From NCBI RefSeq assembly GCF_024298765.1, contig NZ_CP101210.1: DNA of 64,000 nt, one strand, 5' to 3'. Position numbers and translations under genes: made by a program. Origin of the DNA: Escherichia coli (GTDB lineage Bacteria > Pseudomonadota > Gammaproteobacteria > Enterobacterales > Enterobacteriaceae). Below are positions 19,965 through 36,235 of this stretch, piece by piece. A model generated the notes under the pieces. It saw only the letters and a program-made list of their open reading frames with translations, was not told where the DNA came from and did no database searches. Position 1 is the first letter of the stretch. The number at the start of each line of letters is the position of its first letter.

Positions 19965-20210
19965 ATGAATTGTGATAATAATCACAGAAATGAAGAATTC
20001 ATTGTTACCTTTGATAAAGGCAACAAGCAAGACAATTCAAGACGAAAACACGATAATTTTCCTATAGAGGTAGAATCCTCCGTAGAGCAGGAGACACACT
20101 GTATCACAAATAATAAGTCAGCTTCCGGTATAGTAACACATGACTATGATGCCGATTATATTTGTGGTTGTGGTGAAATTATGTGTCCTGGTTGCGGTCA
20201 TGACCTATAA
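19965..20210 (+). CDS. mchS4: Small Cys-rich protein, mchS4-like
   Basis: 81-aa ORF with strong GAGGAGG Shine-Dalgarno 8 nt upstream; C-terminal CGCGEIMCPGCGH cluster; position matches mchS4 in the H47 locus order as I recall it. Confidence 0.5.
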   Translation: MNCDNNHRNEEFIVTFDKGNKQDNSRRKHDNFPIEVESSVEQETHCITNNKSASGIVTHDYDADYICGCGEIMCPGCGHDL

Positions 20211-20365
20211 CAAACATTTTTGCAAACTGATACCTGATCAGGTACAAGCCTGTTGATTATTATGCTGAATATTTCATGTTATAAAACCATCGATATAAAC
20301 ATTAACAAGAAAAAACATATATTGTTTATCTGAACATTTATCGATGGAAAACCAAAGGGGAAAGT

Positions 20366-20800
20366 ATGTATCTTACGAAAAAGATTATAATAAGTATGAT
20401 GTTTATATTACCATCTGCTGCATTTTCATCAGATCCACCTCCCCTTCAACAATCGTTAGAAAAAACAACCTATTTTTCTATAGGTATGAATGGGTTTATA
20501 GGCTATCAGAGCGAAGGGGAAAAATTATACACACACATTCTTACATTAGATAATCCCGAAGAGATATTTAAAAATATAATAGAAAATAGAAAGTCAACTA
20601 AGGAGTCTAAAATTTATGCTGCTTGTGGGCTATATTATTTAAACGTAGAAAATATAGAGTCATTGTTTAATGAAAATGATAAACAAGAATATATGTCTGT
20701 CTTAAGAGGGGATATTTTAACAAAAATAAAACTGAATGATATTCTGAATTCTGTGATAATAAATGGTTGCAACACCAAATTAATATCTGAACATAAATGA
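20366..20800 (+). CDS. mchS3: Signal-peptide protein upstream of the I47-like microcin gene (candidate mchS3)
   Basis: 144-aa ORF with N-terminal signal peptide MYLTKKIIISMMFILPSAAFS; AAAGGGG Shine-Dalgarno; sits where an immunity gene would be expected. Confidence 0.5.
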   Translation: MYLTKKIIISMMFILPSAAFSSDPPPLQQSLEKTTYFSIGMNGFIGYQSEGEKLYTHILTLDNPEEIFKNIIENRKSTKESKIYAACGLYYLNVENIESLFNENDKQEYMSVLRGDILTKIKLNDILNSVIINGCNTKLISEHK

Positions 20801-20816
20801 GCAGGAGGTTTTTAAA

Positions 20817-21053
20817 ATGAGAGAAATATCAGATCACATGCTTGATTTCGTGAAAGGAGGGATGAATCTTAATGGATTACCTAGTTCTACTAATGTAATA
20901 GATCTACGAGGAAAAGATATGGGAACATATATTGATGCTAATGGAACATGCTGGGCTCCGGGTACTCCATCCATCATCATGTATCCGGGGGGAAGTGGAC
21001 CTTCTTATAGTATGAGTAGTTCCACATCCAGCGTAAACAGCGGCACATCATAA
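20817..21053 (+). CDS. mchS2: Microcin I47-like precursor
   Basis: 78-aa ORF MREISDHMLDFVKGG|MNLNGLPSSTNVIDLRGKDMGTYIDANGTCWAPGTPSIIMYPGGSGPSYSMSSSTSSVNSGTS: double-glycine leader, Ser-rich tail; closely resembles MccI47 as recalled; GCAGGAGG Shine-Dalgarno. Confidence 0.75.
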   Translation: MREISDHMLDFVKGGMNLNGLPSSTNVIDLRGKDMGTYIDANGTCWAPGTPSIIMYPGGSGPSYSMSSSTSSVNSGTS

Positions 21054-21085
21054 ATACCCTCCGGCATGGCCGGAGGGTATTTATG
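21054..21085 (+). terminator. Rho-independent terminator after mchS2
   Basis: Perfect 11-bp stem TACCCTCCGGC/GCCGGAGGGTA with 3-nt loop, then T-rich tract, starting 1 nt after the stop. Confidence 0.5.
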
Positions 21086-21337
21086 ATGTGCCTGTAAGAC
21101 TCTACTTCTGTCGTCTCTTTACAAAGGCATATGATCTGTCATTTTGTACCAGACATCTTAACGAGAGCCTTTTCATATATTACTTACATACGTGAAATCT
21201 ACAGTATAAAGCAAAAATTTTATTAAACCTGTTTTATATTTATCATCAATACAACAGATTTAATTCCGGAAAGTCACTCATCATCCCTTGAATGAACGTC
21301 ATTTGATGTATTATTCTTACACTTGGATTAATTTAAG

Positions 21338-22612
21338 ATGATACCTATGAAAAACTATCTTTTCCAGACTCCCGAAGATATTTGTGTACAGTTAAAAAAA
21401 ATGACACATCCTGTCACAATAAGAACAACAGATATTGCTAATTTCTGGCACTATCTTGAGTCAGCAACACTTCCAGTGATCACAAAAAGCACCACTACAG
21501 AAAATCGGGAGGTTACATTTCTGTGGCGCTCAGAGAAAGCACTGCAAGGCGTATATCTTCGCCTGAATCGTGTTACAGATAAAAAAGACGTCAAAAAAGG
21601 ACTAATGACTCATATCCCTTCGACAGATATCTGGATGCTGACACTGGTGTTACCAGCTTCATATCGGGGCTCATACTCATTTATAGAAATTCCCACAGAT
21701 ATGACACAAAAAGACATATTTCAACTAGGAAGTCGCTTCTCTCCATTACCCGGTAAATCTGATCCATTTAACAAAACAGCAGAAATAAATATACGAGGAT
21801 TCGGAGAATCAGTCCTTTCTCTTGATATGGCTCCTGAACAAAAGGAATGGGATGATACTTCCCATAAATGTACAGGTATTCTTTCAATATTACATTCCTT
21901 TGTTGCAGGATATCAACGCCGGATTCGTTTATATTTCCCCCTGAATCCAACATCAGTACCTCTTGGATTACTTGTGTTACCTGATGCTGAAACATGGTTT
22001 GACCGGATAGATATTACCCGGGCATTAGATATGGCCATCACCACTGGTCGTATCACGCCAATGGCAATTATGGGGATAGACAATATTAATGAATCTGATC
22101 GTATGAATATACTGGGAGGCAATAAAGAACTCATCTTTGATATAGCGGAAAATCTGATACCCCAGTTATACAGAGACTATCCGGATATCGTATGGGCTGG
22201 TCGCTCTAATACTGTACTGGCCGGGCAGAGCCTCGGTGGAGTGACAGCACTGATGGCAGCTATATATGCGTCGACAACATTTGGTACAATCATTAGTCAC
22301 TCACCTTCAATGTGGTGGAACCCTGACCAGGGCAGCCCGATCTTGTTTACTGAGAATAATACCTCCTGGGTAAGTGAGCAGATACTTTCAGCGCCTCCGA
22401 AAGATGTAAATATCCGACTTGGAGTCGGTTCTTTAGAAGGTACAACCGTCTCACATGTTCAGCGATTGCATCATTCGTTAATCGCAGCTGGTTTGGAAAG
22501 TAACCTCACTGTCTATACCGGTGGTCACGATTATGCTTGGTGGCGCGGAGCAATTATTGATGAATTAGCAAATTATAATTGCAGGAAGGTATCAAATAAT
22601 AACTCTGTGTAA
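21338..22612 (+). CDS. mchS1: Enterobactin/salmochelin esterase homologue (IroD/Fes-like)
   Basis: 424-aa ORF with serine-hydrolase motif GQSLGG; position between mchS2 and mchA in the H47 locus. Confidence 0.8.
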   Translation: MIPMKNYLFQTPEDICVQLKKMTHPVTIRTTDIANFWHYLESATLPVITKSTTTENREVTFLWRSEKALQGVYLRLNRVTDKKDVKKGLMTHIPSTDIWMLTLVLPASYRGSYSFIEIPTDMTQKDIFQLGSRFSPLPGKSDPFNKTAEINIRGFGESVLSLDMAPEQKEWDDTSHKCTGILSILHSFVAGYQRRIRLYFPLNPTSVPLGLLVLPDAETWFDRIDITRALDMAITTGRITPMAIMGIDNINESDRMNILGGNKELIFDIAENLIPQLYRDYPDIVWAGRSNTVLAGQSLGGVTALMAAIYASTTFGTIISHSPSMWWNPDQGSPILFTENNTSWVSEQILSAPPKDVNIRLGVGSLEGTTVSHVQRLHHSLIAAGLESNLTVYTGGHDYAWWRGAIIDELANYNCRKVSNNNSV

Positions 22613-22753
22613 AATATCGTTTTATCGTCCGATAACTCTTTCTGCAATATTATTATGGGAGACTGTCTCATTTATTTAGTGATGTCCTTCATTTATGTGA
22701 TGAAGGACATTATATTACTCATAACATTTCTCGTTGAAAATTTCAGCAATACG

Positions 22754-23878
22754 CTACAATTGTTTCCCGTTGTTTTTTAATTTTCTCATCAAAACCTCTG
22801 CGATCTCTGCAGGAGTGGGTTGTTCAGCCATTTCAGCGGCTACCTGATCTGAACAGAAGCGTAGTGAATCATCATAAAGCAGGCGATTTACCAAATCACT
22901 GGTCAGTCCATGCTTGTCCGGAATAATCCCACACCCACGCTTCGCAACAATTTCTGCATTAACAGAGCGATCTGCACCTTCTCCAAACACAATCTGTGGT
23001 ATTCCACTATACAGCGCTGTCAGGGTATTACCTGCGCCACCGTGATGAATAAATCCATCAGCTCCATTAAGGAATACACCCATAGGTATCCAGTCAACCA
23101 GACGTACATTTGATGGTAGTTTTCGTAATCCAGTACGAGCATTTATTGCAAGTTGCAAAATGATATCAGCATCAACTTCATTTGCTGAATCCATAACCCA
23201 TGAAATCAGCTCCAGACCATCAACCATTGGTTTTACAGTGCCAAGGCTGATGAGTAAACGTTTCCGATCAGAATCCCTGTCCCACCATGTTTCCTTTACA
23301 GCACCTCCGTTATAAGGAATATATCGCATTGAGATAATCGGTTCTTCAGCATTTTTAAGAATGCTCATACTTGGGGGAGCAACATCAATCCATGCTAAAT
23401 CACATAGTGGACCGCTGACTCCATGCCGCCTGTAAGCATTGCTTAAAGAACGGTTTAACATCTGAATATGGGCAGATGTATGCGCGAATCCAACAGCCAG
23501 CATCACTGAAGAAATTCTATATTTAGCAGCAACCAATGGGCCTGCCGGACCAAGCGGGGGATAGACTATTAAATCTGGCCTCCATTTTCCTGCAAAATCG
23601 ATGAGGTTATCTGCCATTTCATCGCTAAAAAAAGAGAAATGACCAATAATATTACTTTTTTTCCTCAACTCTTCCTGATGACGATATCCAGCCTCTGAAT
23701 CTAAACTTGGAGCTGCATCAAAAACAACCAGTCCAGCTTCTGCTGCTTTATTCGCGAATTTGCCAGCGCTACTAATTACTACATCATGTCCGATTACACG
23801 AAAGGCCTGAGCCAGAGAAATCAATGGGTATAACAAACCGTACAGCGGAGGGCCAATAAAAAGAATACGTTTTCGCAT
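22754..23878 (-). CDS. mchA: Enterobactin C-glycosyltransferase homologue (IroB-like)
   Basis: 374-aa GT-B glycosyltransferase-like ORF (MRKRILFIGPPLYGLLYP..., C-terminal HHGGAGNT nucleotide-sugar motif). Confidence 0.85.
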   Translation of the reverse strand: MRKRILFIGPPLYGLLYPLISLAQAFRVIGHDVVISSAGKFANKAAEAGLVVFDAAPSLDSEAGYRHQEELRKKSNIIGHFSFFSDEMADNLIDFAGKWRPDLIVYPPLGPAGPLVAAKYRISSVMLAVGFAHTSAHIQMLNRSLSNAYRRHGVSGPLCDLAWIDVAPPSMSILKNAEEPIISMRYIPYNGGAVKETWWDRDSDRKRLLISLGTVKPMVDGLELISWVMDSANEVDADIILQLAINARTGLRKLPSNVRLVDWIPMGVFLNGADGFIHHGGAGNTLTALYSGIPQIVFGEGADRSVNAEIVAKRGCGIIPDKHGLTSDLVNRLLYDDSLRFCSDQVAAEMAEQPTPAEIAEVLMRKLKNNGKQL

Positions 23879-24554
23879 TAAAAAAGTCCGTCTTCTGCTT
23901 ACCTGTTTATTTTTCTATCGCTAAGAAAACATAATTAATATTATTTTTATGTGAGCTTATGCACAAAAATAACAAAGTATCTTATCTTCTGGTAGAGATA
24001 CAGGATACAGTTTGTAGGAGCTTTCTTTTTTTGAACAATGATTTGCAGGACAGTTATGCCAACCTAGCAGAATCAGTATCACAACAATAAATGACAGATC
24101 ATACCTGAAATTTGAATTAACAGGCATCATGAATGTCAATAGTCTAAGCGGTTACTACTTACATCGCTTGCATAAATACTAAACACTGACTAGAAAAGTA
24201 TTGGATAACCCCGTCACTAAAAGTAACACTTCGGTTATTTGCTCGGAATGTATCAACGCCAAGATTGTTAGCCGTTACGCCTTATATCACTGGCGCTGAC
24301 AAATGTTTCTTTTCTAATTTACTGAACCGGCGCAGACTTACAGAAAAACACTCCGGCACCGGTGTAATGCCAGTTATAAACAATGTGAATGGAATGACGA
24401 ATCAGTCAGGAAAGAGCTACAATCTGCTGGCTGACCGGAGAGGGTCAGCAGGAAGATGAACGGTAATGTCGCCAGCACCAGGGGCAGGGCCGGGTTCCAC
24501 AATACCAGCGCCGGCATTTTGCACATTGCCAGCGTACCGGCATCACAACACGTT

Positions 24555-24791
24555 TCATGCAGCTGCTCCTCGTGATTCCTCAATTCGCTGCTGCATCCAC
24601 TGCTCCACTTCACTTTTGTACCAGCGGCTGCTGCGGCCCAGCTTGATGGGTTTCGGGAAATGGCCTTCACTGATCAGCTTGTAAAACCATTTATCTGTCA
24701 TACCGGTGAAACTGGTGATGTAGTTCATGTCGATCAGGGGATCGTCGGCACGCAGCAACACGCAGTCGTGGCCTGTCATTGAGGTCAACAT
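24555..24791 (-). CDS. alpA: AlpA-family phage/island transcriptional regulator
   Basis: 78-aa ORF with the AlpA-type HTH signature ...ISEGHFPKPIKLGRSSRWYKSEVEQW. Confidence 0.75.
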   Translation of the reverse strand: MLTSMTGHDCVLLRADDPLIDMNYITSFTGMTDKWFYKLISEGHFPKPIKLGRSSRWYKSEVEQWMQQRIEESRGAAA

Positions 24792-24859
24792 GGTCAGAAT
24801 ATCCTCTGTGAGATTTATGAAGGTTGTGCGAATGCGGGGAAAGGTGCTGAGCCGTATTC

Positions 24860-25567
24860 TCAGAACGGTCCTGCAGATCCGGGATAGCCGGGATTACCGG
24901 CGAGGCAACGGGCTTCCGGATCGCACACACCACGACGATCGCGGGCGAAATCACTGAACGCCCAGATCAAATCTTTGAGGATGTCTTCGCAGTCCGGTGA
25001 ACGACTGTCCAGCACCACATCCCGGGTTATCTGTTTCTGGTACGGTGCCGCTTCCCCCGGTGACGCGAAGCCCAGTACGTTGCTCCAGGCATCCAGAATC
25101 AGCCGGTCCAGTTCGGGGCCGTCGAAATACTCCTGTCTGACGCACAGCACCACGTGGTATTCCGGCTTTTCCGGATGACGGGTCAGGAGCCAGCAAAGGT
25201 CGCGTCCGGGTTTCGCATTCATCAGCGCACTGACGGTTTCGATAAAATCCATACCAAACCAGGTCTGTCTGCTGTTGAAGGCGTTGTCATGTTCCCACGG
25301 CAGACGAAGCAGGATCCGCCGTATCCGTGAGCCGGACTGCTCACGCAGCGCACGCTCAAGGACGCCGATGACTTTGTTCTGATAAGATGGCCAGAAGGGT
25401 GCCAGGCTATAGTCGAAATAAGGAATAGCATTCATAAGATATGTTCCGTTATGCGCAGCCCACAATGCGTCCTGCCCGTGAATGAGCTGACGTGTTATGG
25501 CTTGCGGATGAGATTGATGGAATAAGTGAAGAACTGAAGCAGAACGGGAAGATAAGGGACAGAACAC
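24860..25567 (-). CDS. Inovirus Gp2-family (YfjJ/YagK-like) protein, paralogue 1; start uncertain
   Basis: Similarity to the two other paralogues in the window; track start is GTG, first in-frame ATG is at 25435 (MNAIPYFDYS...). Confidence 0.55.
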   Translation of the reverse strand: MFCPLSSRSASVLHLFHQSHPQAITRQLIHGQDALWAAHNGTYLMNAIPYFDYSLAPFWPSYQNKVIGVLERALREQSGSRIRRILLRLPWEHDNAFNSRQTWFGMDFIETVSALMNAKPGRDLCWLLTRHPEKPEYHVVLCVRQEYFDGPELDRLILDAWSNVLGFASPGEAAPYQKQITRDVVLDSRSPDCEDILKDLIWAFSDFARDRRGVCDPEARCLAGNPGYPGSAGPF

Positions 25568-25681
25568 CGGATTCAGGTTCAGGATGAATGATCTCCGTTG
25601 ACTTCAGTTCACATCATTAATCAATGCGGTAAGTTTTTACCGACGGAGTGTTTCCAGGAGCGGAGGCTCAGGCCTTAAGCT

Positions 25682-26248
25682 TCAGAAGTGAGGCTTACGA
25701 GGACGCCCTGCAGCAGGACGTTCAGGAACTTCATTGCAGCCGTAGGCACACAGCCCGTCTTTTTGTTCTTCTTTCGCCAGATAATGCAGGGCACCGCGAA
25801 TATTATCGATGCTTTCAGGATCGTTGTGGCGCACAGGAATGTTGATGTTGTATGCATAATGCGGCTGATATGTACAGCGGTGCGCCGAACCACAGTTATA
25901 CGTAATTGCCTGCCAGCATTCCGCTATCCGCTCCGCAAAGGGATATATTTTTTTAACCCTCTGACGATCGATCCAGAAAACGACATGCGCATGAAAACCA
26001 TGATCAGCCGTCCATTCAATCACCCAGAAGAAACCAACGATATTTTCAAATTGTTCCACCTGCTCCAGCAGCATACGCAACTGTAATTCAAGCCAGCGAT
26101 GATCAGGTTGTAAGAAATCGGGCGTATCTTTCCTGTAGAAGAAATCCATCCGTAAGGCCCGCAGGCAGGAATAGCGTGCCATCATTTGATTGATGTGATT
26201 GTCAAGTAAAGCGGTAAAAAACCAGTTTGGTGTGTAAGATTTAGGCAT
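25682..26248 (-). CDS. Inovirus Gp2-family (YfjJ/YagK-like) protein, paralogue 2
   Basis: 188-aa ORF with family-typical core (...GFFWVIEWTADHGFHAHVVFW...); tandem with paralogue 1 downstream of alpA. Confidence 0.6.
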   Translation of the reverse strand: MPKSYTPNWFFTALLDNHINQMMARYSCLRALRMDFFYRKDTPDFLQPDHRWLELQLRMLLEQVEQFENIVGFFWVIEWTADHGFHAHVVFWIDRQRVKKIYPFAERIAECWQAITYNCGSAHRCTYQPHYAYNINIPVRHNDPESIDNIRGALHYLAKEEQKDGLCAYGCNEVPERPAAGRPRKPHF

Positions 26249-27665
26249 GTTGATGACTCCTGAAAGTTAATGATGTTTTAAGCTCTGTGAGCGAATTAAT
26301 GCTTTCGCTCATAATCAGATCTAAAACGGTAATAACTTACAGATGGTATTTATCAGGCATGCTGTAACAGAATGGATACGACGGATTATTAACGACACAC
26401 AGCGTTGTGCTGAAGGGTATGAGTTATCTGATGGCATTGTCTATAGAGATGAGATAAACGAGGTGCGAAGAAAATACAGATTCAATACAACACAGTGAAA
26501 TACAGAAAAATACGAACTGTAATCCCGCTGCCAGGCGGTTAGGAAACATATTACAACTATAAGCTCATGATTTGTAAATTTGCTCTCAGTGAGTCTGAAA
26601 AAACGTTTATAAGGTCACCACAATAAACTCACACGCGCTTATTCAATCTGTTTTCCAGGATATGAACGTTAACGACACACGATAGCATAAGACAACATAC
26701 AATGGATGAATAATTTTCACCCAGTACCTTAAACAATACAACCGGCAACAAATATAATCAGAAATTCACTCTGTTAATTCTGTTGTTTATCCTGCGCTGT
26801 TAAACATGACGGAATCATGGATACCTTATCAAAGAGTAAACATTCAGTTAATCTGTGATGACAGAGAAATTGTTTCCAACCAGAATAGTTAAAACACTTC
26901 AGATAAACAATCATTGTTAAGCAAATACAGTTCATGATGGATAAGATTAAAATCAATTGCTGTTTCACTGAAAATGAGAACAGATGGATATCAGCAATAG
27001 CGTAGTAGAGAATAACTTATCCGAACATCATATGAGTTACAGTAATTATGATTGAGGGGGATGGAGTGGATACGATAACAAGAGTAAATAAAGACAGAGT
27101 AAAAGTAAAGGGCAAGTGTAATAATAGTAATAAACCTAAATTAAAATTATCCATGTTTGATGTAAAAATAATAATATACTGACAACCATGAAGGTAAGAA
27201 AAAGAGAGTGCAGGTATCAGGAAGATCTCAGGATATGAAGATTCCCACAGCACAGATTTAAAATTAGTCGAATATAATAAATTTAAAAACCTTAATTAAA
27301 ATGTAATCTCATCCATGGTTAACATGCTCCTGAAAAGGAAAGTTACAAATACCGTATGCTACCAACTAATTACAACAATGATATATGTACATTCAGTAAG
27401 AATACAGATAAAATATTAATACCAACTTCCAGTATCAAGATCGTATCGCGAACTTCAGATGCGCTATGAGGCAGTTCAATTTTTAACTTTCGTTTTCCTC
27501 TTCCTCCCTGGCTTCATATGCATAAGCGACTTGAAAGACCCGATGATAGTTACAATTTCAGGTTGTGGCATGACGATCAATTTGTAACTGAAACAATGAA
27601 CGGTAACGCTGCCATATAAACATCAAAATGCGAGCATTACAGCGACATTGAACCGATTAGATGTA

Positions 27666-28421
27666 TCACTCATAATCAGAACAAGATGATGTATCCTGAG
27701 ATATAAGAAAATCATCAAGAGAACCTCCGGCTTTTATTGCTTCTGCAATAACATTAGGCCGACGACCTTGTCCACTCCAGTACATTGTTTGACCGTTATA
27801 CTCATATCTGTATTTATGCCCTCCTGACACACTTTTTCTGCCTGCCTGTAATTTTTTGCCAAATTCACGTTCGTCGATCATGGTAATGATATAGCGACGC
27901 ATTTCACCCATTCTGAGCTCAATGGCGTCCATCCCAATGAGCTCACCGGTCTTTACCAGACGGTAGTGCTTTGGCCGGTGGGGTTTGGCGGTTCGCTTTT
28001 TGACAAGCAGAGCCTTACCCCGCGAGCTCAGACGTACTGGTACCATCCGCATTTTATCGTGTGCGGTGGCGATCATTCTGCCGATGGTGGAAACACTCGG
28101 GCAGGTCAGATGGCGCTGTGCGCACCAGGGCTTCAGGCGAACAAAAATCTGCTCTTTACCGAGGTTTGGCAGCTCTGTCCTGAGGCGTCGAATCTCTTTC
28201 AGCACATCGGGATGCCAGTGCTTTTTTCGTCGCACCAGAGGTGCCTTACTGTGCGGGATTAGCCCCTCAGGTCCTCCCTTGTTCAGTAACTGACGCCACC
28301 AGTAAAGCGTGCGGCAGGACACGCCAAAGGCTTCAGAAGCCGCAGAAATACCGTGTTTATCCCAGAAGTGCAGAGCCTTCATTCTCATTGTTGCTATATC
28401 AGCCATCACTGAAAGCCTCAA
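27666..28421 (-). mobile_element. IS transposase remnant (IS3/IS481-like N-terminal HTH, truncated catalytic core)
   Basis: N-terminal MKALHFWDKHGISAASEAFGVSCRTLYWWRQLL typical of IS transposase HTH; DDE core begins then is lost to an unrelated C-terminus; track start is TTG, ATG at 28406; no inverted repeats identified. Confidence 0.5.
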
Positions 28422-28899
28422 CGCATAATCGGCCGTTTAGGATAGCCAACCATCAGATGCTGCATTTGCATAGTGCAATCTCCCCTTACTTATCCGGAGG
28501 CAATTGCAATATCTCTGTGAACTTACACACAGGTATAATCAATAAGGGCGTACGGAGATTGCCCGTTATTGCTGCAGGATCGGCAGACTGGTTCCCGTCC
28601 TTGCGCATATAACTGTACAACCACAGAGAAAAGCATCAATGCACGCTTTATGTTGCGTCAGGGCAGCGAACGACTCCTTTTGTTGACGACACATATCACC
28701 TTCTGTACTGCCAATTATGGCATTCAGCGTCTCCCCGAGTTTTAAGCTCCTGCTCTTACGAACCAGCGACAAGCAATAAATAACTATGGCAATGAATCTA
28801 ATAACAGCATAAATATGAGACTCATCGATACTCATCGTGATTAGTATAATCGGGGCAGAATTATATTCACTGTCTGATTTATTATTGAGTTAAATATAA

Positions 28900-29352
28900 T
28901 TAAAGTGTTCTCAAAAGTCTGGCTGGATTACCGGCATACACGCCTTTTACCAGCACGGGCTTTGTAACCACACTACCAGCACCAATCACTGCTCCACTGC
29001 AAATTTCTGTGGTTAAAATGGTCGCTCCGCTACCCACTGTTACAGTGTTACCTAATACGATGCGTATCCAGCTTTCTGCAGAGGCATCGGGACCACCACA
29101 CTTAAAAAGATCATTAGCAAAAGTTACGCCATGACCGATGAAACAGCCATCACCTAAAATGACGTTCTCACAGATGAAACTGTGGGACTGAATTCGGCTC
29201 CGGTTGCCAATGATACATCCCTTCTGTATTTCCACAAAGGGACCGATAAAAACATCATCCCCCAGTTCACATTCATAGAGGTTTACTGGCATGACGACTT
29301 TCACATTTTCACCAAATTTCACATCACGAATGCGGCTGTCAATAACGTTCAT
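28900..29352 (-). CDS. Hexapeptide-repeat (left-handed beta-helix) acetyltransferase
   Basis: 150-aa ORF with repeated [LIV]G-x4 hexapeptide pattern (IGNRSRIQSHSFICENVILGDGCFIGHGVTF...); ATG start. Confidence 0.75.
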   Translation of the reverse strand: MNVIDSRIRDVKFGENVKVVMPVNLYECELGDDVFIGPFVEIQKGCIIGNRSRIQSHSFICENVILGDGCFIGHGVTFANDLFKCGGPDASAESWIRIVLGNTVTVGSGATILTTEICSGAVIGAGSVVTKPVLVKGVYAGNPARLLRTL

Positions 29353-29861
29353 ATCCGTTGTATCCTCCCTCAGGATGATTCTTATCAGAACATTTCACCT
29401 GTCAGAATATTCCCGGTAATGTGATACAAGAGCCAGTCTCACCGGGTACCATGTGTTATTGCTCGTATCCTTTTGCCCGTTACGAGTGTACAACCGGTTT
29501 TATATTTTGCAATCCAGGCCTGTTACACCAGAGCATCCTCTCACTGCCCCCTCACTGGTCAATCCGGGATTCAAAGTCATCCTCCAGCACTAAACCCCAT
29601 ACCAGTCCTGAACCTTCCCTCGCCAGCAGCCAGACTCCTACTGTTCACCACAATCCTCTTCCGTGAATGGCCGTAAGTGCGCAGCACCAAAATAAATCGG
29701 TACTTCCGATGACAGACAGTGAAAGCGTCAGAGAAATATGAACATGAGAATGGAAGCAGATACATGACTTCAGGACGACTTTTTCAGAAAACGAGCTAAG
29801 GGCGTCAGCCAACGACCTTACCGTGGTATACGCTCAGGCGCCGGATGCCGTTTTACCCGGT

Positions 29862-30593
29862 TCACCTGCCATCCAGCAAACGCCCCGGCCCACGACTGCA
29901 ACCATAATTACGTTGCCCGGAACCGTCATGCTGCTTCGTCTCATATTTCACGAGATAACTGGCTCTGTTCCGGGCTTTCTGCATCGCTTCCACATCACCA
30001 CGCTTGATCCAGAGAACAGCGGCTTCACCAGACTTTTTGTCTGAAGCCTTCCAGGTATCAGAACATCCACCCGACAAAGGCGTGTCATCGGAAGAAGGGC
30101 GAACATCAGACGATGCTGGTTTACGGGAAGGCGTCCACCTGGAAAAATGGACCAGGCCATCGCCTTGCCAGGGCTCAAGATGCAGGGCGCTGCACCATGC
30201 CTCCTGGATCATCGTCGCCAGCGAAGACGGTTCGCTGAAATCCCCGAGCGAGCACCAGGTATCTTTGTTGAGCAGTAATATCACGTGATAATGTTTCCTG
30301 CCATACATCTTGCCGAACTCCCGGCACCAGAAATAACCCAGGCTGGTTGCATGCACACGCTGATTGGCACATCTTTTTTTCCGCTGGTAAGCCTGAATTT
30401 TGGCTTTCAGGGATGCAAAAAAACGAGAAATCACCGCTGAATCCGGATCGGGATCCATGATGGTGACAGGCATATACTCAGGGAAACGTAAATCCACCCG
30501 GATTAACGAGACGGCACGGTGCTGCGCCAGGGCACTGTCGAGAAGGCTGTCAAAACGGGATAACCAGTAAGCATTGTGTATTGGTTGATTCAT
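29862..30593 (-). CDS. Inovirus Gp2-family (YfjJ/YagK-like) protein, paralogue 3
   Basis: 243-aa ORF, ATG start, conserved HYHVILLLNKD segment; conserved leader motif immediately upstream (30601-30648). Confidence 0.7.
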   Translation of the reverse strand: MNQPIHNAYWLSRFDSLLDSALAQHRAVSLIRVDLRFPEYMPVTIMDPDPDSAVISRFFASLKAKIQAYQRKKRCANQRVHATSLGYFWCREFGKMYGRKHYHVILLLNKDTWCSLGDFSEPSSLATMIQEAWCSALHLEPWQGDGLVHFSRWTPSRKPASSDVRPSSDDTPLSGGCSDTWKASDKKSGEAAVLWIKRGDVEAMQKARNRASYLVKYETKQHDGSGQRNYGCSRGPGRLLDGR

Positions 30594-30984
30594 GATGAGA
30601 GATCTCCGTTGATTTGGATTGACTTCACATCATTAATCAACGCAGTAAAACTTTACGGCATCCGACATTGAGCAATACTACAACTCTCTGATTAAGAGTG
30701 ATTGAAACGGAACAAACCATCCCGGAACGAAAAGATAATCCTGCACACAGCAGCAAAATACGCAACAACAGCATGAATGGATTTAAAAACGACATGGACG
30801 ACGAGAAAAGTCTGAAGGGAAAAGGAGCCACAGAACATTCGAACAAAACACCAGAAATGCAACCAGAACGCTTCCTGGCAATGCAAATCAACAACAACGC
30901 CAAAACCTACAACTTAATCACACAACTCAATCACGGATGCGAATGACACGCTTAAAACCTGTTTACAGATAACGCCGTAACACG

Positions 30985-31026
30985 ATCATCACCATCACCA
31001 TCACCATCACCATCACCATCACCATC
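30985..31026. repeat. Hexanucleotide simple-sequence repeat (ACCATC)x6 with flanking ATC
   Basis: Read directly: gatcatc(accatc)6ag; no start codon in the poly-His frame (a TAA lies immediately upstream). Confidence 0.85.
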
Positions 31027-31461
31027 AGAATCGATTTTCTCATCCCGAAAATGTTACGTTTCACTACGCACCATAAAAACGATTAACCATCGATAACGTA
31101 AATCTCATCTGAATCAAAACACCAAAACCGTTCATCACACTTTCGCAATGCAAGAAGAAACCTCATGACAAAAAGAATGACCTTACACGGAAAAGAAAAA
31201 CGTCAGGAATCGTTAATGCCTCAATCTGATTGTTATCAAAACATCCAGAAAGTCGTTTAACAGAATCGTCGTAAGCACATCGAAAAGAACGTCAGATTAC
31301 TTCAGGAAAGTTCGGGTTGATTTAGCGTAAAGATACTTTTCTCAAGCTAACGTCGAAACTCGAAATCTCAGGAAAGGTTAAACGTAACATCAGTAAAATC
31401 GAATAGCAGATTGATTGCTTAAACAGAAAGGTTTTACAGCAGCATTAAACTGATTTAGTTA

Positions 31462-31497
31462 ACGTAAAGATTTACTAAACGTAAAGATTTACTAAAC
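31462..31497. repeat. Tandem duplication of a 17-bp unit (cgtaaagatttactaaa)
   Basis: Read directly in the ORF-poor segment; about 100 bp downstream are three spaced copies of acgtgtat(a) (near 31572, 31606, 31636). Confidence 0.7.
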
Positions 31498-32593
31498 TGG
31501 ATGTGTATCAGATCAAACAATGTGTACAGCAATGCTTAATGAAAATACTTGTAGAATTGTTTATGAGAAAGCGTGTATAACACTTACTGAAATGCTTAGT
31601 TAAATACGTGTATGTTTGGTAAAACACTTAAGTAAAATACGTGTATAGTACCATTCCCGACATTCTCAACATCTTCAGACATCCATGCAGACTGAGTGTT
31701 GATTTCAGTTTTTCACGGCCAGCATGGATCTTTACTGTTTAAAAAACATACAGATTTACTCTGAAATTATTTACCCAGGCCTCCCTGAAAAGACCATCCG
31801 GAGCATCCCGTTCGTCAGCTTCCATGTTGTCTTTTACCCCGGAAAGTGATCGCATTTTCCAGCCAGAATGACAGCCATACTGATTATGACGTCTCTCCGG
31901 CCCCTTCACATATAACATTCATGTCAGTCATTTCTTACTGCCTCACTCACCGGAATTCTCCATGCCGGATGAAGCAATTGTTCTGAACTGAGCAGAAGCA
32001 TAACAGCACACAAGGAAACGACTGTGCTATAGATCCTGGAATCAGGATCTTAATGTCAGGAAAACAATGACGACCGGGGATAACCAACAACAACCTGAGT
32101 ACAGAAGAAAGCTTTCCCGCGCACGCCATCATCTTATGTAAGAGGATATGATGCCACCCCCACCTCAGAAGAACCGTCTCCGGGAGAACTTCACTGCATC
32201 CAAAATCCTTTTGCTGAGTTCTCATTCCCCATCATGGCAGCTACAGACATGCCCTGACAGAGCGTATGCGCATTGAGAGAAATAACCATAAATGATGAGA
32301 AGACACTCTATATAACGACAGCATGTTGAGGCATCAAAAATATTCATATAAATATTTTAAGAAAATTTTTTATTGCAAACTACAGGAAATAACATGATGT
32401 CAATATAATTTTTTAAAAAACGTGATATTAATCACATTGTAATTTTCTGTGTTTTTATGTAAATCAGAGAAAAGAGTCCATGAACGTTATTGCATTTTTT
32501 CTGATGTATGGATAAAAGGGGATTCAGGCGAAATTTACTGACAGAGGTGATAAGAGGGGGGTTAAAGAGTTCTATAGAGTTGGTTGTGCATTT

Positions 32594-33463
32594 ATGCCCA
32601 GGGAGTTCATGTCTGTGCATTCACCAGATGAATCTGATCATGTTTTTAGTCGGATGGAATATGAATATTACCGACATAACGATAAATCACCTTCTGTTAA
32701 TGCTGATAATGCAGGCAGAGACGTTGTTCCGGAGTGGGTGCAAAAAGACCCTGTAGCCGCATTCTGGGTATGGATGTTTATATATCATGTTCCTGACAGT
32801 ATTGTCCGACTCTCAGGTGAGCAATATGCAGATTACGGAATTTCCTGTCTGTATGCCAGACTGTTTGCCACAGAAGCAGCTCCAGCTAATCATCAGGCAA
32901 GGATTCGTGTGACGAGAAAATGGCTACAGGAGCTTATAAGGCTAACCGGGACAGAAAATGTATCTGACTTCTTGTATGTCGTTCATTTTTTATGGTCATA
33001 TGCTGAAAAAGTGAACCCCATGACATGGCTTGGTTCCCGGCGGATACATATCAAATGGGCATGGGCGTATCTGCAAAAACATTGCACTGACGAAGAACGT
33101 CACTGTCCTGATATTTCAGAATTTAAAGCTTCAGGGGAGTCACGTCTGTTCATAATAGCTTATGTGCGCCGTGTCTTCATGAAAATCTATTCTGTCGGTA
33201 CTGAACCTCAAAAGTTAAAAGAATTAGTTTATCAGCAGAATGATTTTCTCAGGCGCATGAAGTGCTCATACCAGAAAATGTTCCGGTATGAGAAAACCGA
33301 TTCCCGGGTACAGATAAGTGCCCTGATTTCTCCGGAAGCCAGGAATGCACTCCGGAAAATGGCAAAAAAGAATAATCTGACGCAGGCTGAAATCCTGGAT
33401 AAACTCATCTTATCAGCTGATCGTCTGTTTATGCAGAAAACAGCAGGGGATTATTCCCGTTAA
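32594..33463 (+). CDS. Uncharacterised protein with C-terminal ribbon-helix-helix-like segment
   Basis: 289-aa ORF with ATG start; C-terminal VQISALISPEARNALRKMAKKNNLTQAEILDKLIL fits a beta-strand/helix/helix (CopG/Arc-like) pattern; no other family recognised. Confidence 0.5.
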   Translation: MPREFMSVHSPDESDHVFSRMEYEYYRHNDKSPSVNADNAGRDVVPEWVQKDPVAAFWVWMFIYHVPDSIVRLSGEQYADYGISCLYARLFATEAAPANHQARIRVTRKWLQELIRLTGTENVSDFLYVVHFLWSYAEKVNPMTWLGSRRIHIKWAWAYLQKHCTDEERHCPDISEFKASGESRLFIIAYVRRVFMKIYSVGTEPQKLKELVYQQNDFLRRMKCSYQKMFRYEKTDSRVQISALISPEARNALRKMAKKNNLTQAEILDKLILSADRLFMQKTAGDYSR

Positions 33464-34449
33464 TGAGTTCCACCAGAACCGTTTTTCTTTTTGCTGCTGT
33501 TTTTGCGTTTATGCTGTTCGTACCTTTCTTTTGACGTACAAAGGAATCTTCCATAAACATTGCGGATATATGAGTTGATATACTCCAGCATTCTCTCTTT
33601 TCGTGATTTCCCTTTTTCCTTCGAATCTTCACTTTGAACATTAATGTCCATCAGTTCTTTTATAAACTTATCCAGATTTTCCATGTCATAAAGCAGCATG
33701 AAAAACATCACATTTCCCAGTGATTCCAGTAACTGAGATTCAACCCAGTCCCCATATTTTCTGAAACTTAGCCCTGTTAAAAACTGTTCAAACATTACCC
33801 CTGATACAAAAAGAGATTTTAATCCCAGTCGCTTATATTCCTGGTAAAAAAGTTCAAACGTCGGGGATTCTGAACGGCAAATAAACGAAGACAGCGCCCA
33901 TGGATCAAAATCTGTAACACGCCTCCCCTCCCACACTTCCTGCCGTGTCAGCGGCGGTTCAGCAAACCAGGCGTCCAGCTCAGCCGAATCGCTGTCCCTG
34001 CTCAAAACCTTATACAAACTGCCCGTGAACGGTTGAGGCGGATTTTTGGTTGCTTCATCTTCTGATTGTCTGGATTGTCTGGATTGTCTGGATTGTCTGG
34101 ATTGTCTGAATCCGTCCACTTTTCTCCGGATATTACGCGGGATCAGCATAAAAGGCGGGACATTAAGTGATAAACGTTTACCCGTCATGCGATACCATTG
34201 CCCCACCTCAACCTTAATCCGTGTATCTGACTTTAGCTCAAGTGCCATTATGTTAAGCAGGTACAGATAACGCACCGTATAACAGTCAAAATGTTTCTCC
34301 GGATCAAACGGCTCTGACCGTTCTCTGCACACGAGTCCGCTGCGCTTCAGTATTCGCTGGGTATCTTTCCAGGCCTTACACTGAAGAATGGTGGTAACTC
34401 TGGCCTTATTAGCAATCTCACGCAGCGCATCACTTTGTTGTGCCGTCAT
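33460..34449 (-). CDS. Uncharacterised protein with internal (RQS)5 repeat
   Basis: 329-aa ORF, ATG start preceded by GGGAGGTGAG Shine-Dalgarno; contains an in-frame 9-bp tandem repeat (34062-34106); stop overlaps the stop of the convergent 32594 gene (TTAA). Confidence 0.55.
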   Translation of the reverse strand: MTAQQSDALREIANKARVTTILQCKAWKDTQRILKRSGLVCRERSEPFDPEKHFDCYTVRYLYLLNIMALELKSDTRIKVEVGQWYRMTGKRLSLNVPPFMLIPRNIRRKVDGFRQSRQSRQSRQSRQSEDEATKNPPQPFTGSLYKVLSRDSDSAELDAWFAEPPLTRQEVWEGRRVTDFDPWALSSFICRSESPTFELFYQEYKRLGLKSLFVSGVMFEQFLTGLSFRKYGDWVESQLLESLGNVMFFMLLYDMENLDKFIKELMDINVQSEDSKEKGKSRKERMLEYINSYIRNVYGRFLCTSKERYEQHKRKNSSKKKNGSGGTH

Positions 34450-34554
34450 CTCACCTCCCGCACTCTGTCACTCCAGATTTTTTCACGTCCATATTACCTG
34501 AATGATAAGCCGGATTAGTGTGATCCGGTTCAGCGAAATCAACAGGATAACGGT

Positions 34555-35439
34555 ATGTCATTCAGCCATTCTTCCCTCTCCGCACAAGTGAAATCACATC
34601 TGACGTTTCTTCCTGAAGAAATTCGCCAGAAAATCCTTGAACATCTCCACAGTGTTATTCATTACGAGCCCGTGATTGGCATTATGGGTAAATCCGGAAC
34701 AGGCAAAAGCAGTCTGTGTAATGCCATTTTTCAGTCCCGTATCTGCGCCACACATCCTCTGAACGGCTGCACCCGCCAGGCTCATCGTCTTACCCTGCAG
34801 TTCGGTGAACGCAGAATGACGCTGGTCGATCTGCCCGGCATTGGTGAAACACCGCAGCATGATCAGGAATACCGGACACTTTATCGTCAGCTGCTACCGG
34901 AACTGGATCTGATTATCTGGATCCTGCGGGCTGATGAACGTGCGTATGCTGCTGATATTGCCATGCATCAGTTTTTACTGAATGAAGGCGCAGATCCCTC
35001 GCGTTTTCTGTTTGTTCTCAGCCATGCCGATCGCGTGTTTCCTGCTGAAGAATGGAATGCCACAGAAAAATGCCCGTCCCGTCAGCAGTCGCTCTCACTG
35101 GCGACGGTGACAGCCCGGGTGGCAACCCTGTTCCCTTCATCATTTCCGGTACTCTCCGTTGCTGCACCTGTCGGCTGGAACCTTCCGGCGTTTGTGTCGC
35201 TGATGATCCACGCACTGCCACCACAGGCAACCAGCGCGGTGTATTCACATATCCGGGGAGAAAACCGCTCTGAACAGGCCCGGAAACACGCACAACAGAC
35301 TTTTGGTGAAACCATCGGGAAAAGTTTTGACGACGCCGTTGCCCGTTTCAGTTTTCCGGCCTGGATGTTACAGCTTCTGCGCAAAACCCGGGACCGCATT
35401 ATCCACCTGCTGGTCACACTGTGGGATCACCTGTTCTGA
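34555..35439 (+). CDS. YeeP/YkfA/YfjP-family GTPase
   Basis: 294-aa ORF with P-loop GKSGTGKSSLCNAIF and DLPGIGE (G3) motifs; position typical of CP4-44/CP4-57-like elements. Confidence 0.8.
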   Translation: MSFSHSSLSAQVKSHLTFLPEEIRQKILEHLHSVIHYEPVIGIMGKSGTGKSSLCNAIFQSRICATHPLNGCTRQAHRLTLQFGERRMTLVDLPGIGETPQHDQEYRTLYRQLLPELDLIIWILRADERAYAADIAMHQFLLNEGADPSRFLFVLSHADRVFPAEEWNATEKCPSRQQSLSLATVTARVATLFPSSFPVLSVAAPVGWNLPAFVSLMIHALPPQATSAVYSHIRGENRSEQARKHAQQTFGETIGKSFDDAVARFSFPAWMLQLLRKTRDRIIHLLVTLWDHLF

Positions 35440-35557
35440 ACGCCCCGGAGTCCCCCGTGGCAACCGTATACCTTTACACGACAACGGATTACGGTAACCA
35501 CTGCCGTATACCGTCTGTCATTATCAATAACACGCTCTTTAATTTCAGAGGTCAGTC

Positions 35558-36235
35558 ATGAATACCAGAATTCTTTTTCCCCTGCTGTTCACTGTGGCAT
35601 CATTCTCCGCCTCCGCCGGCAACTGGGCTGTCAAAAACGGCTGGTGTCAGACCATGACGGAAGATGGTCAGGCGCTGGTAATGCTGAAAAATGGCACGAT
35701 TGGTATTACCGGCCTGATGCAGGGATGCCCGAATGGTGTACAGACGCTCCTGGGCAGCCGTATCAGTATTAACGGTAACCTGATCCCCACATCACAAATG
35801 TGTAATCAGCAGACGGGATTCAGGGCTGTTGAGGTGGAAATCGGACAGGCGCCGGAAATGGTCAAAAAAGCCGTTCACTCCATAGCAGAGCGTGATGTGT
35901 CCGTTTTACAGGCATTTGGTGTACGAATGGAATTCACCCGCGGTGATATGCTGAAGGTCTGTCCGAAATTTGTCACATCACTTGCCGGTTTTTCCCCGAA
36001 ACAGACGACCACTATTAATAAAGATTCCGTCCTGCAGGCTGCCCGGCAGGCATACGCCCGGGAATATGACGAGGAAACAACAGAAACCGCTGATTTTGGC
36101 TCTTACGAAGTAAAAGGCAATAAGGTTGAGTTTGAAGTATTCAATCCTGAAGACCGTGCGTACGACAAAGTGACCGTCACGGTTGGTGCTGACGGTAATG
36201 CCACCGGCGCCAGCGTTGAATTTATCGGAAAATAG
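35558..36235 (+). CDS. Secreted/periplasmic hypothetical protein
   Basis: 225-aa ORF with cleavable signal peptide [20 protein letters not shown]; ATG start. Confidence 0.6.

Follow-up and report, generated by a model that had tools for sequence, protein, structure and literature searches.

What does a short non-coding sequence do that stands twice in one island of Escherichia coli, ahead of genes with no DNA likeness above chance? We studied this question in a 64,000-nucleotide stretch of contig NZ_CP101210.1 (assembly GCF_024298765.1), hereafter called the window, which includes a composite island adjoining the microcin H47 cluster; the region is 100% identical to E. coli GPEC1031. The repeated block heads two minus-strand transcription units. 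One begins with gp2-243, a gene of the YagK/YfjJ ('inovirus Gp2') family, and the other consists of the orphan gene hyp191 followed by an alpA-family gene. We found that the block is non-coding and under strong purifying selection. We propose that it is a cis-acting control site of the gp2/hyp191-alpA module, whose genes are replication-like and excision genes, most likely a protein-binding DNA operator, and we give this reading a probability of roughly 45%.

The likeness between the two copies is far greater than expected by chance. The original prediction had noticed matching strings at both places and these were confirmed, with GATCTCCGTTGA at 25590-25601 and 30601-30612, TTCACATCATTAATCAA at 25608-25624 and 30624-30640, and TGCGGTAA / CGCAGTAA after them in the two copies. 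Approximately 0.25 chance matches to each of GATCTCCGTTGA and TTCACATCATTAATCAA would be expected in the window. The likeness also extends further than had been predicted. Read along the minus strand, the segments 25640 to 25577 and 30656 to 30588 are about 80% identical (58 against 63 bases), with one 5-nt indel, and this gap in length is exactly one 5-nt repeat unit. Local alignment of the two 300-nt upstream regions scored 53, against 18.4 ± 2.4 in 1000 dinucleotide shuffles (z = 14.7), none of which reached 53. The two downstream coding sequences (CDSs) were alike at chance level only (score 23 against 20.9 ± 2.1), and the flanking DNA of the two copies could not be aligned. A profile built from many copies and run on the window recovered just these two; it did not recognise the upstream region of y188, a further YagK/YfjJ-domain gene, or a set of repeats at 31.4 kb as third copies.

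By blastn, the block was present in approximately 1,895-1,900 of 5,426 complete E. coli genomes (~35%), at up to 11 places per genome and nearly always on the chromosome. A set of 153 copies was assembled from a pattern scan of metagenomes (120 loci), the window and previously fetched E. coli loci. Two types of copy could be told apart by a gap of 6 nt (type A, the first window copy) or 11 nt (type B, the second). Where enough flank was available, gp2-243 stood directly 3' of the type B block in all 77 copies and hyp191 followed by alpA stood 3' of type A in 68/68. The upstream neighbour of type A was y188 in 52 of 73 copies and gp2 in the remaining 21. Compact islands have the order B-gp2-A-hyp191-alpA with the blocks approximately 935 bp apart, and other islands hold 4-10 kb of cargo between the blocks. 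On the minus strand of the window, T-rich non-coding DNA (about 1.1 kb) is followed in order by block B, gp2-243, cargo (an acyltransferase gene, and helix-turn-helix (HTH) and H-NS pseudogenes), y188, block A, a 157-nt leader, hyp191 and alpA. The original prediction had set the block 5' of a Gp2-family gene in both cases. This holds for type B, but type A was not beside a start codon in any of 76 copies, and the Gp2-like gene adjoining it in the window (y188) lies upstream of the block, not downstream. The upstream regions of yfjJ and yagK in strain K-12 lack the block. The block is thus not a general feature of the YagK/YfjJ family.

The block does not encode protein. A coding or leader-peptide function was rejected: the 5-nt indel puts types A and B in different frames, and variants of the type A leader are out of frame with one another. 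Distances from GGAG to the hyp191 ATG were 149, 157, 158, 168-170, 172, 173, 182 and 194 nt, values that do not differ by multiples of 3. This leader stays open in frame for between 36 and 198 nt, and the leaders fell into two unrelated classes. An AUG-AUG-UGA mini-open reading frame was rejected as a leader peptide as well, having no Shine-Dalgarno sequence.

We measured divergence from the consensus only in copies ascertained through the other block at the same locus. In type B (n = 34), the core (core-22) diverged by 1.2%, other block positions by 2.1%, CDS codon positions 1 and 2 by 3.3% and position 3 by 6.5%. The corresponding values in type A (n = 27) were 0.17%, 6.6%, 3.7% and 10.3%. 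Two lineages were found in which the flanks of block A are unalignable on both sides, the DNA 5' of the block being the 3' end of gp2 in one and of y188 in the other; block A was nonetheless about 97% identical between them, compared with about 90% for the CDS. Variation was nearly confined to one central palindrome base, a 5-nt spacer, the base before TTAATG and one repeat base. Conservation of the block as non-coding DNA, as originally predicted, therefore stands, with purifying selection acting strongly upon it. It is not the 3' end of duplicated coding sequence private to this strain.

Along the minus strand, each block consists of a 12-bp palindrome (GTAAA-NN-YTTAC), a variable spacer of approximately 8 nt, a near-invariant repeat stretch of approximately 35 nt and the sequence GGAG(ATC). 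The near-invariant stretch is made up of TTAATGATGTGAA and then short direct repeats of the form T(G/C)AA(C/G). In the type A palindrome, for which the variants GTAAAACCTTAC, GTAAAAATCTAC and GTAAAAAACTAC were seen, the GTAAA half-site and the terminal TAC were invariant, one central base varied (0.33) and slight variation (0.04 each) was seen at the two leading bases of the right half-site. Conserved half-sites arranged as a dyad around a freely varying centre are expected of an operator for a dimeric regulator. Restriction of the variation to the centre, the spacer and a few further bases fits recognition of DNA half-sites by a protein. The direct repeats were analysed by autocorrelation. 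In type B this reached 0.42 at lag 5, against 0.25 ± 0.07 in shuffled sequence (P = 0.014, or 0.12 after correction for lags), and in type A it was 0.48 at lag 10 and 0.35 at lag 5. Lag 5 or 10 was the strongest in type A, type B and a related block of the Yersinia group, with P between 0.01 and 0.1 per sequence.

The two types differ at the downstream end. In type B, the block takes in the Shine-Dalgarno sequence GGAG and continues through the gp2 ATG; the ATG was present in 77/77 copies and GATC in 75/77. Between the string first quoted and this ATG we measured seven bases and not the 8 bp originally given. In type A, CTGAAC stands where type B has ATGAAT, and the true start of the downstream gene lies approximately 157 nt beyond. 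The triplet aligned with the ATG was CTG in 56 copies, including that of the window, TTA in 13, CTT in 6 and CAG in 1 (n = 76), and GATC was found in 68/76. To judge from this alignment, type A resembles a duplicate of the gp2 5' end, first two codons included, that was set upstream of hyp191 and has since lost the start codon and little else.

The palindrome recurs at the genes of the module and in related elements. Exact matches to GTAAANNYTTAC in the window were limited to the two blocks and two sites approximately 0.85 kb upstream of gp2, all inside the module, where about 0.2 would be expected in 64 kb by our own estimate. Sites resembling the upstream GTAAATCTTTAC pair were present in only some related loci. 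The gp2-alpA pair is reported to be a core of Pseudomonas islands (bioRxiv 10.1101/2024.08.29.610337), and we found it syntenic in Providencia, Morganellaceae, Brenneria and a Yersinia/Pantoea/Rahnella group. Two Providencia loci (L133 and L134) carry the identical 12-mer GTAAAGTTTTAC between gp2 and alpA, upstream of an alpA whose product is 72% identical to the window AlpA and has an almost identical HTH. In the Yersinia/Pantoea/Rahnella group, GTAAAAAATTAC stands at the head of a block of some 75 nt upstream of gp2 that is conserved in its own right (GATGAACTGAACTCAGTCAGCGAAGGA...ATG) and beyond whose 5' edge the sequences diverge. Ahead of alpA there is a second palindrome-like site in this group, with GATGTTGAGAAGGAG after it. 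Palindromes with one mismatch were also present in the gp2/alpA intergenic regions of three further loci (L011, L012 and L135). A search of viral contigs with AlpA gave one informative new locus, L141.

Taken together, these features are best fitted by a protein-binding control site. The half-sites and the repeat-containing core are invariant, and the centre and the spacer vary freely; this pattern has been kept before two units that are otherwise fully diverged, and a two-site arrangement recurs in another genus group. As both units are headed by the same block, both would answer to the same factor, which would act in front of gp2 and of hyp191-alpA. In type B the block bases double as the gp2 translation start. 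Pairing of GAUUAAUGAUG with CAUCAUGAAUC in the type B mRNA could hide the AUG and so add a layer of translational control. In type A the apparently copied gp2 5' region, some 160 nt ahead of hyp191-alpA, has kept its palindrome, repeats and GGAG, and its start codon has decayed. We infer from these patterns that a protein binds the block, and the same applies to the identity of the binder and the sign of regulation. Possible binders are the AlpA-type factor of the island, Gp2 with its predicted HUH fold, its degenerate paralogue or a host factor.

Several observations weigh against an operator. No sigma-70 consensus was found on either strand within or adjoining either block, hence there is no identified promoter for an operator to act on. 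Promoter candidates read by eye (AATGAT; antisense TTCACA-16-TAAAAC) were weak and not common to related genera, promoter scans in relatives gave none that was shared, and terminator scans around both blocks found nothing. GGAG is kept in type A with no start codon following it, which a DNA operator does not specifically predict. The 5-nt periodicity of the repeats is suggestive but not significant once corrected for the lags tried. By sequence comparison, the full block is not recognisable outside Escherichia: an exact-pattern scan of one genome per species returned one Enterobacteriaceae metagenome-assembled genome and two chance matches. By nhmmer alone the match to the Yersinia-type block was not significant (E = 4.5), so that its weight comes from its position. 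Two Morganellaceae loci (L137 and L138) have GATATCCC repeats in place of a palindrome although the AlpA HTH is the same, and the Gp2 proteins that do share the palindrome are merely 31-38% identical. Sequence correlations thus appear to favour neither AlpA nor Gp2 cleanly as the binder.

Rfam 15 had no match at either block with E <= 1 (searched within 20000-36000). When consensus boxes for IHF, CRP, FNR, TyrR, CpxR and sigma-54/E/28 were compared by eye, no convincing match was seen.

We also compared the products of the module genes with known proteins (coordinates of all features are given in Table 1). The best structural matches of the gp2-243 model, predicted with a mean confidence score (pLDDT) of 74.5, were HUH nucleases: NS1 of minute virus of mice (MVM; 8.1), SIRV1 ORF119 (7.5), Rep of adeno-associated virus (AAV; 7.0), Helitron (6.8) and ISHp608 TnpA (6.5). 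Gp2 thus models as an HUH-nuclease fold. The motifs RVDLRxP, HxH and YLxK are invariant across the Gp2 family, and a nuclease of this predicted kind, with the catalytic His-x-His and Tyr, is encoded directly beside the block. An insertion of about 45 aa in gp2-243 (residues ~153-190, low pLDDT) is not present in the 189-213-aa relatives from other genera. The genes downstream of the two copies had been called paralogues. The gene at copy 2 is a clear Gp2 member, but that at copy 1, hyp191, had no Pfam match at E <= 0.01 and could be tied to the family only remotely, by hhalign against a 14-sequence Gp2 alignment (probability 80.6%, E = 1.3e-5, 123 columns). This alignment pairs RRILLRLPWEH of hyp191 with the family motif RVDLRFP and PEYHVVL with KHYHVLLL. 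The change from KHYH to PEYH removes the first catalytic His; the Tyr-motif region is unaligned, the corresponding sequence being AFSDFARD. The AlphaFold2 model of hyp191 is unreliable (pLDDT 49), with helices and strands in the same order as in Gp2. From these comparisons, hyp191 is best seen as a distant relative of Gp2 that is catalytically degenerate. All homologues of hyp191 that were found came from E. coli or metagenome contigs, and both it and gp2-243 are essentially limited to E. coli. Its own start region, AACGGA(A/G)CATATCTTATGAAT, in the form AACGGAGCATATCTTATGAAT resembles the gp2 start region. Assignment of y188 to the family was based on weak Pfam matches and BLASTP against gp2.

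Table 1. Coordinates of the two blocks, their parts and the associated genes in the window.
Feature	Position	Strand	Description
Type A block (copy 1)	25577-25661	-	25577-25640 aligns with type B
Type A-only conserved 5' extension	25641-25661	-	GCTCCTGGAAACACTCCGTCG; absent from type B
Type A palindrome	25629-25640	-	GTAAAAACTTAC; exact pattern match; half-site ends invariant
Type A direct repeats	25597-25616	-	TGATG TGAAC TGAAG TCAAC; read from sequence; one position (C/T) varies
Apparent dead copy of gp2 start region in type A	25577-25596	-	GGAG 25593-25596, GATC 25590-25593, CTGAAC 25577-25582
Variable non-coding leader	25436-25576	-	Between block A and hyp191 start
Type B block (copy 2)	30588-30656	-	Directly 5' of gp2-243, extends into gene start; from alignment with copy 1
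Type B palindrome	30645-30656	-	GTAAAGTTTTAC; exact pattern match; in 74/77 type B copies; half-sites invariant
Type B direct repeats	30608-30632	-	TGATG TGAAG TCAAT CCAAA TCAAC; read from sequence; one 5-nt unit more than copy 1
gp2 translation start in type B	30591-30607	-	GGAG 30604-30607, GATC 30601-30604, ATG 30591-30593
13-nt inverted repeat in type B, 5' arm	30628-30640	-	TTGATTAATGATG
13-nt inverted repeat in type B, 3' arm	30585-30597	-	CATCATGAATCAA; covers start codon
Two exact palindromes upstream of gp2	31464-31475 and 31481-31492	-	GTAAATCTTTAC; 17 bp apart, ~0.85 kb upstream of gp2
Palindrome-like site	26329-26340	-	GTAAGTTATTAC; ~80 nt upstream of y188 start; rest of leader different
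gp2-243	29862-30593	-	243 aa; YagK/YfjJ ('inovirus Gp2') family; YagK_YfjJ_C PF11726, Pfam E = 2.5e-35
hyp191	24860-25435	-	191-aa orphan, E. coli-restricted
alpA-family small winged HTH gene	24555-24791	-	78 aa; PF05930 E = 2e-10; recombination-directionality-factor type; last gene of unit
y188	25682-26248	-	Divergent second YagK/YfjJ-domain gene immediately 5' of block A; HAH and YLAK motifs

Action of the block as RNA was considered an unlikely, though the most serious, alternative to a DNA operator. The block would then be a 5'-leader or intercistronic element that hides the Shine-Dalgarno sequence and start codon, or binds an RNA-binding protein or small RNA, for control of translation or stability. 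The predicted fold of the type B RNA has an energy of -24.1 kcal/mol (z = -3.9 against shuffles), with the AUG paired in the 13-nt inverted repeat and UCC pairing with GGA. A CUCCG specific to the upstream part of type A can pair with CGGAG, so GGAG is pairable in both types with different partners, and its conservation in type A would suit this explanation, as would the missing promoter consensus, by which the block would probably be transcribed from further upstream. The type A RNA, however, folded no better than shuffles (z = -0.8 and +1.3), and no fold beyond a 4-5-bp hairpin was common to the two types. Type A has no start codon to regulate, the hyp191 start being so far away. Common variants (GGTGATT, GGCGATT) lose the outer pairs of the type B stem, and the few core variants of this stem comprised one improving and two disrupting changes, which is little variation to judge by. 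No known RNA family was matched, and further palindromes stand 0.85 kb upstream, beyond any leader of this kind. Somewhat less likely again is that the block is a binding or nicking site of Gp2, that is, an origin or Rep-binding element for rolling-circle replication of the excised island, with the second copy a second site or terminator. HUH enzymes bind tandem 4-5-bp repeats beside a small palindrome, as a rule a short way 5' of the gene that encodes them. The layout of the block matches this, its two types are one repeat unit apart in length, gp2 is bracketed by the two copies in direct orientation whether or not cargo is present, and Gp2 has a predicted HUH fold. It is doubtful to the same degree that Gp2 binds the repeats, nicks nearby and replicates the excised island, with hyp191 a competing non-cutting binder that sets the switch. 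With arms of 5 bp around a 2-nt centre, the palindrome is a poor hairpin former and would expose no loop for nicking, and it was not extruded in the single-stranded DNA fold of type B. Statistical support for the periodicity is weak, the paralogue that follows type A appears to have lost the catalytic His and Tyr, and replication of this type of island was not reported in the literature searched.

Two further explanations are much less probable than either of these. The block could have no function and be left over from a segmental duplication that took in the gp2 5' end, or it could mark a recombination joint, and its conservation would then be due only to recent spread of the islands. The decayed start and first codons of type A do point to a copy of the gp2 start region, and the borders of the block are sharp, with unrelated DNA on both sides. 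But the core has diverged 5- to 60-fold less than synonymous sites of adjacent genes at the same loci, and a neutral remnant is therefore largely refuted. Immediately 3' of the block, the leader has either been replaced or diverged too far to align, variation is restricted to few positions, and the Yersinia group shows a comparable pair of sites. The slightest prospects are those of a Dam-methylation-dependent switch centred on the GATC of GGAGATC. The original prediction had pointed to this GATC, which is present in both window copies and, as given above, in most copies of either type. It is not invariant, being lost in 10/153 copies overall, with GGAGGTC, GGAGAGC, GGAGTTC and GGAGAAC as natural variants. 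There is a single GATC per block, the Yersinia-type block has its GATC elsewhere, and the Brenneria upstream region has none nearby. A site that is frequent but not invariant makes a Dam switch unlikely.

Known systems resemble the block in part. Rep-binding elements of HUH proteins, such as the (GCTC)n element of AAV Rep, (ACCA)n of MVM NS1 and the geminivirus iterons by the origin stem-loop, overlap the promoter or leader of their own gene. Like these, the block has apparent short tandem repeats and a small palindrome directly upstream of a gene with a predicted HUH-fold product, and the layout would allow both autoregulation and origin function. Unlike these, its palindrome is too short for a loop-exposed nick site, its periodicity is weak and its second copy precedes a catalytically dead paralogue. 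Structured rep leaders of plasmids, of the R1 repA and IncB/IncI repZ type, hide the start codon. The block shares with them the position in a conserved leader of a replication-type gene and, in type B, an mRNA that can pair the start codon. By contrast, we found neither an antisense RNA gene nor a leader peptide nor covariation, and type A has no start codon.

Small winged HTH recombination directionality factors (RDFs) that also regulate transcription include P4 Vis, P2 Cox, KplE1 TorI and ROD21 SEN1998; RDFs are reported to bind several sites and to modulate expression (PMC8844411). In line with an RDF operator, an AlpA-family gene ends the type A unit and the Providencia AlpA has the same palindrome upstream. 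Known RDF sites, however, are direct repeats in att regions, whereas the block lies 0.8-6 kb from alpA and not at an island end, and the palindrome is missing in Morganellaceae despite the same AlpA HTH. AlpA of Pseudomonas aeruginosa has a larger 21Q-like fold with HTH contact residues at 128-142; it binds GGGACG between -35 and -10 and needs a -10-like pause site (PMC9371919). The name of the protein and a DNA element near a promoter are all that the two systems share. We rejected an analogy to antitermination by that protein, as the window protein is a 78-aa PF05930 winged HTH protein and no promoter or pause element was found.

Further features were seen around the module. The alpA stop codon shares bases with an ATG at 24540-24560 (GCATGA), and a translationally coupled downstream open reading frame (ORF) may follow. 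In the gp2-alpA intergenic region of the Yersinia/Pantoea/Rahnella group (L141, L150 and L151), a small ORF of ~24 codons (GGAG-N5-GTG) comes after the second palindrome-like site. Read from the sequence, its stop codon TGA overlaps with the ATG of alpA, as would fit a translationally coupled leader ORF. The y188 leader (26288-26345) has a perfect inverted repeat, TGAGCGAA-N8-TTCGCTCA, and folds far better than shuffles (z = -4.1). A 72%-similar copy (27649-27680) precedes the frameshifted HTH pseudogene and constitutes a second, different shared leader. In Brenneria L012 (2919-2947), the best promoter-like site near the gp2 start is antisense (TTAACA-17-TACAAT, 10/12) and is absent from E. 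coli. Its position coincides exactly with the segment that corresponds by homology to the 5' part of the E. coli block, and it may give a divergent or antisense transcript.

The non-coding stretch of ~1.1 kb upstream of gp2, T-rich and strongly skewed, has features of its own. It holds a cluster of TTTACGTT-type repeats on the minus strand at 31300-31500, some 0.7-0.9 kb 5' of gp2, which includes the GTAAATCTTTAC pair. Morganellaceae loci have TTTACGTAG repeats at the corresponding place. The TTTACGTT-type repeats could be further operator sites or iterons. At 30987-31032, also upstream of gp2, there is a (GGTGAT)n microsatellite on the minus strand (CATCAC on the plus strand); runs of at least two perfect units occurred in 4 of 73 related loci, pointing to a strain-specific expansion. 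An 82-aa 'hypothetical protein' annotated antisense in the skewed leader (30698-30946, plus strand) has no Pfam match and may not be a real gene.

The gp2-alpA pair is a conserved core of a widespread class of integrative islands in Enterobacterales and Pseudomonas (bioRxiv 10.1101/2024.08.29.610337). We found no study of gp2-alpA regulation or of the role of HUH-fold Gp2 in the literature searched, and searches with sequence strings and family names gave nothing relevant to the block. No description of the block was found in the literature and databases searched; most probably it belongs to a known general kind of regulatory site, an ordinary operator or leader. The block is the most constrained sequence of the module, exceeding the genes themselves. 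It thus offers a handle on the control of excision and possible replication of these islands, in the form of a defined 60-70-bp probe with predicted critical bases. Were the block an origin or Rep-binding element for Gp2, pathogenicity-island-type elements in about one third of E. coli genomes would gain an autonomous replication step.

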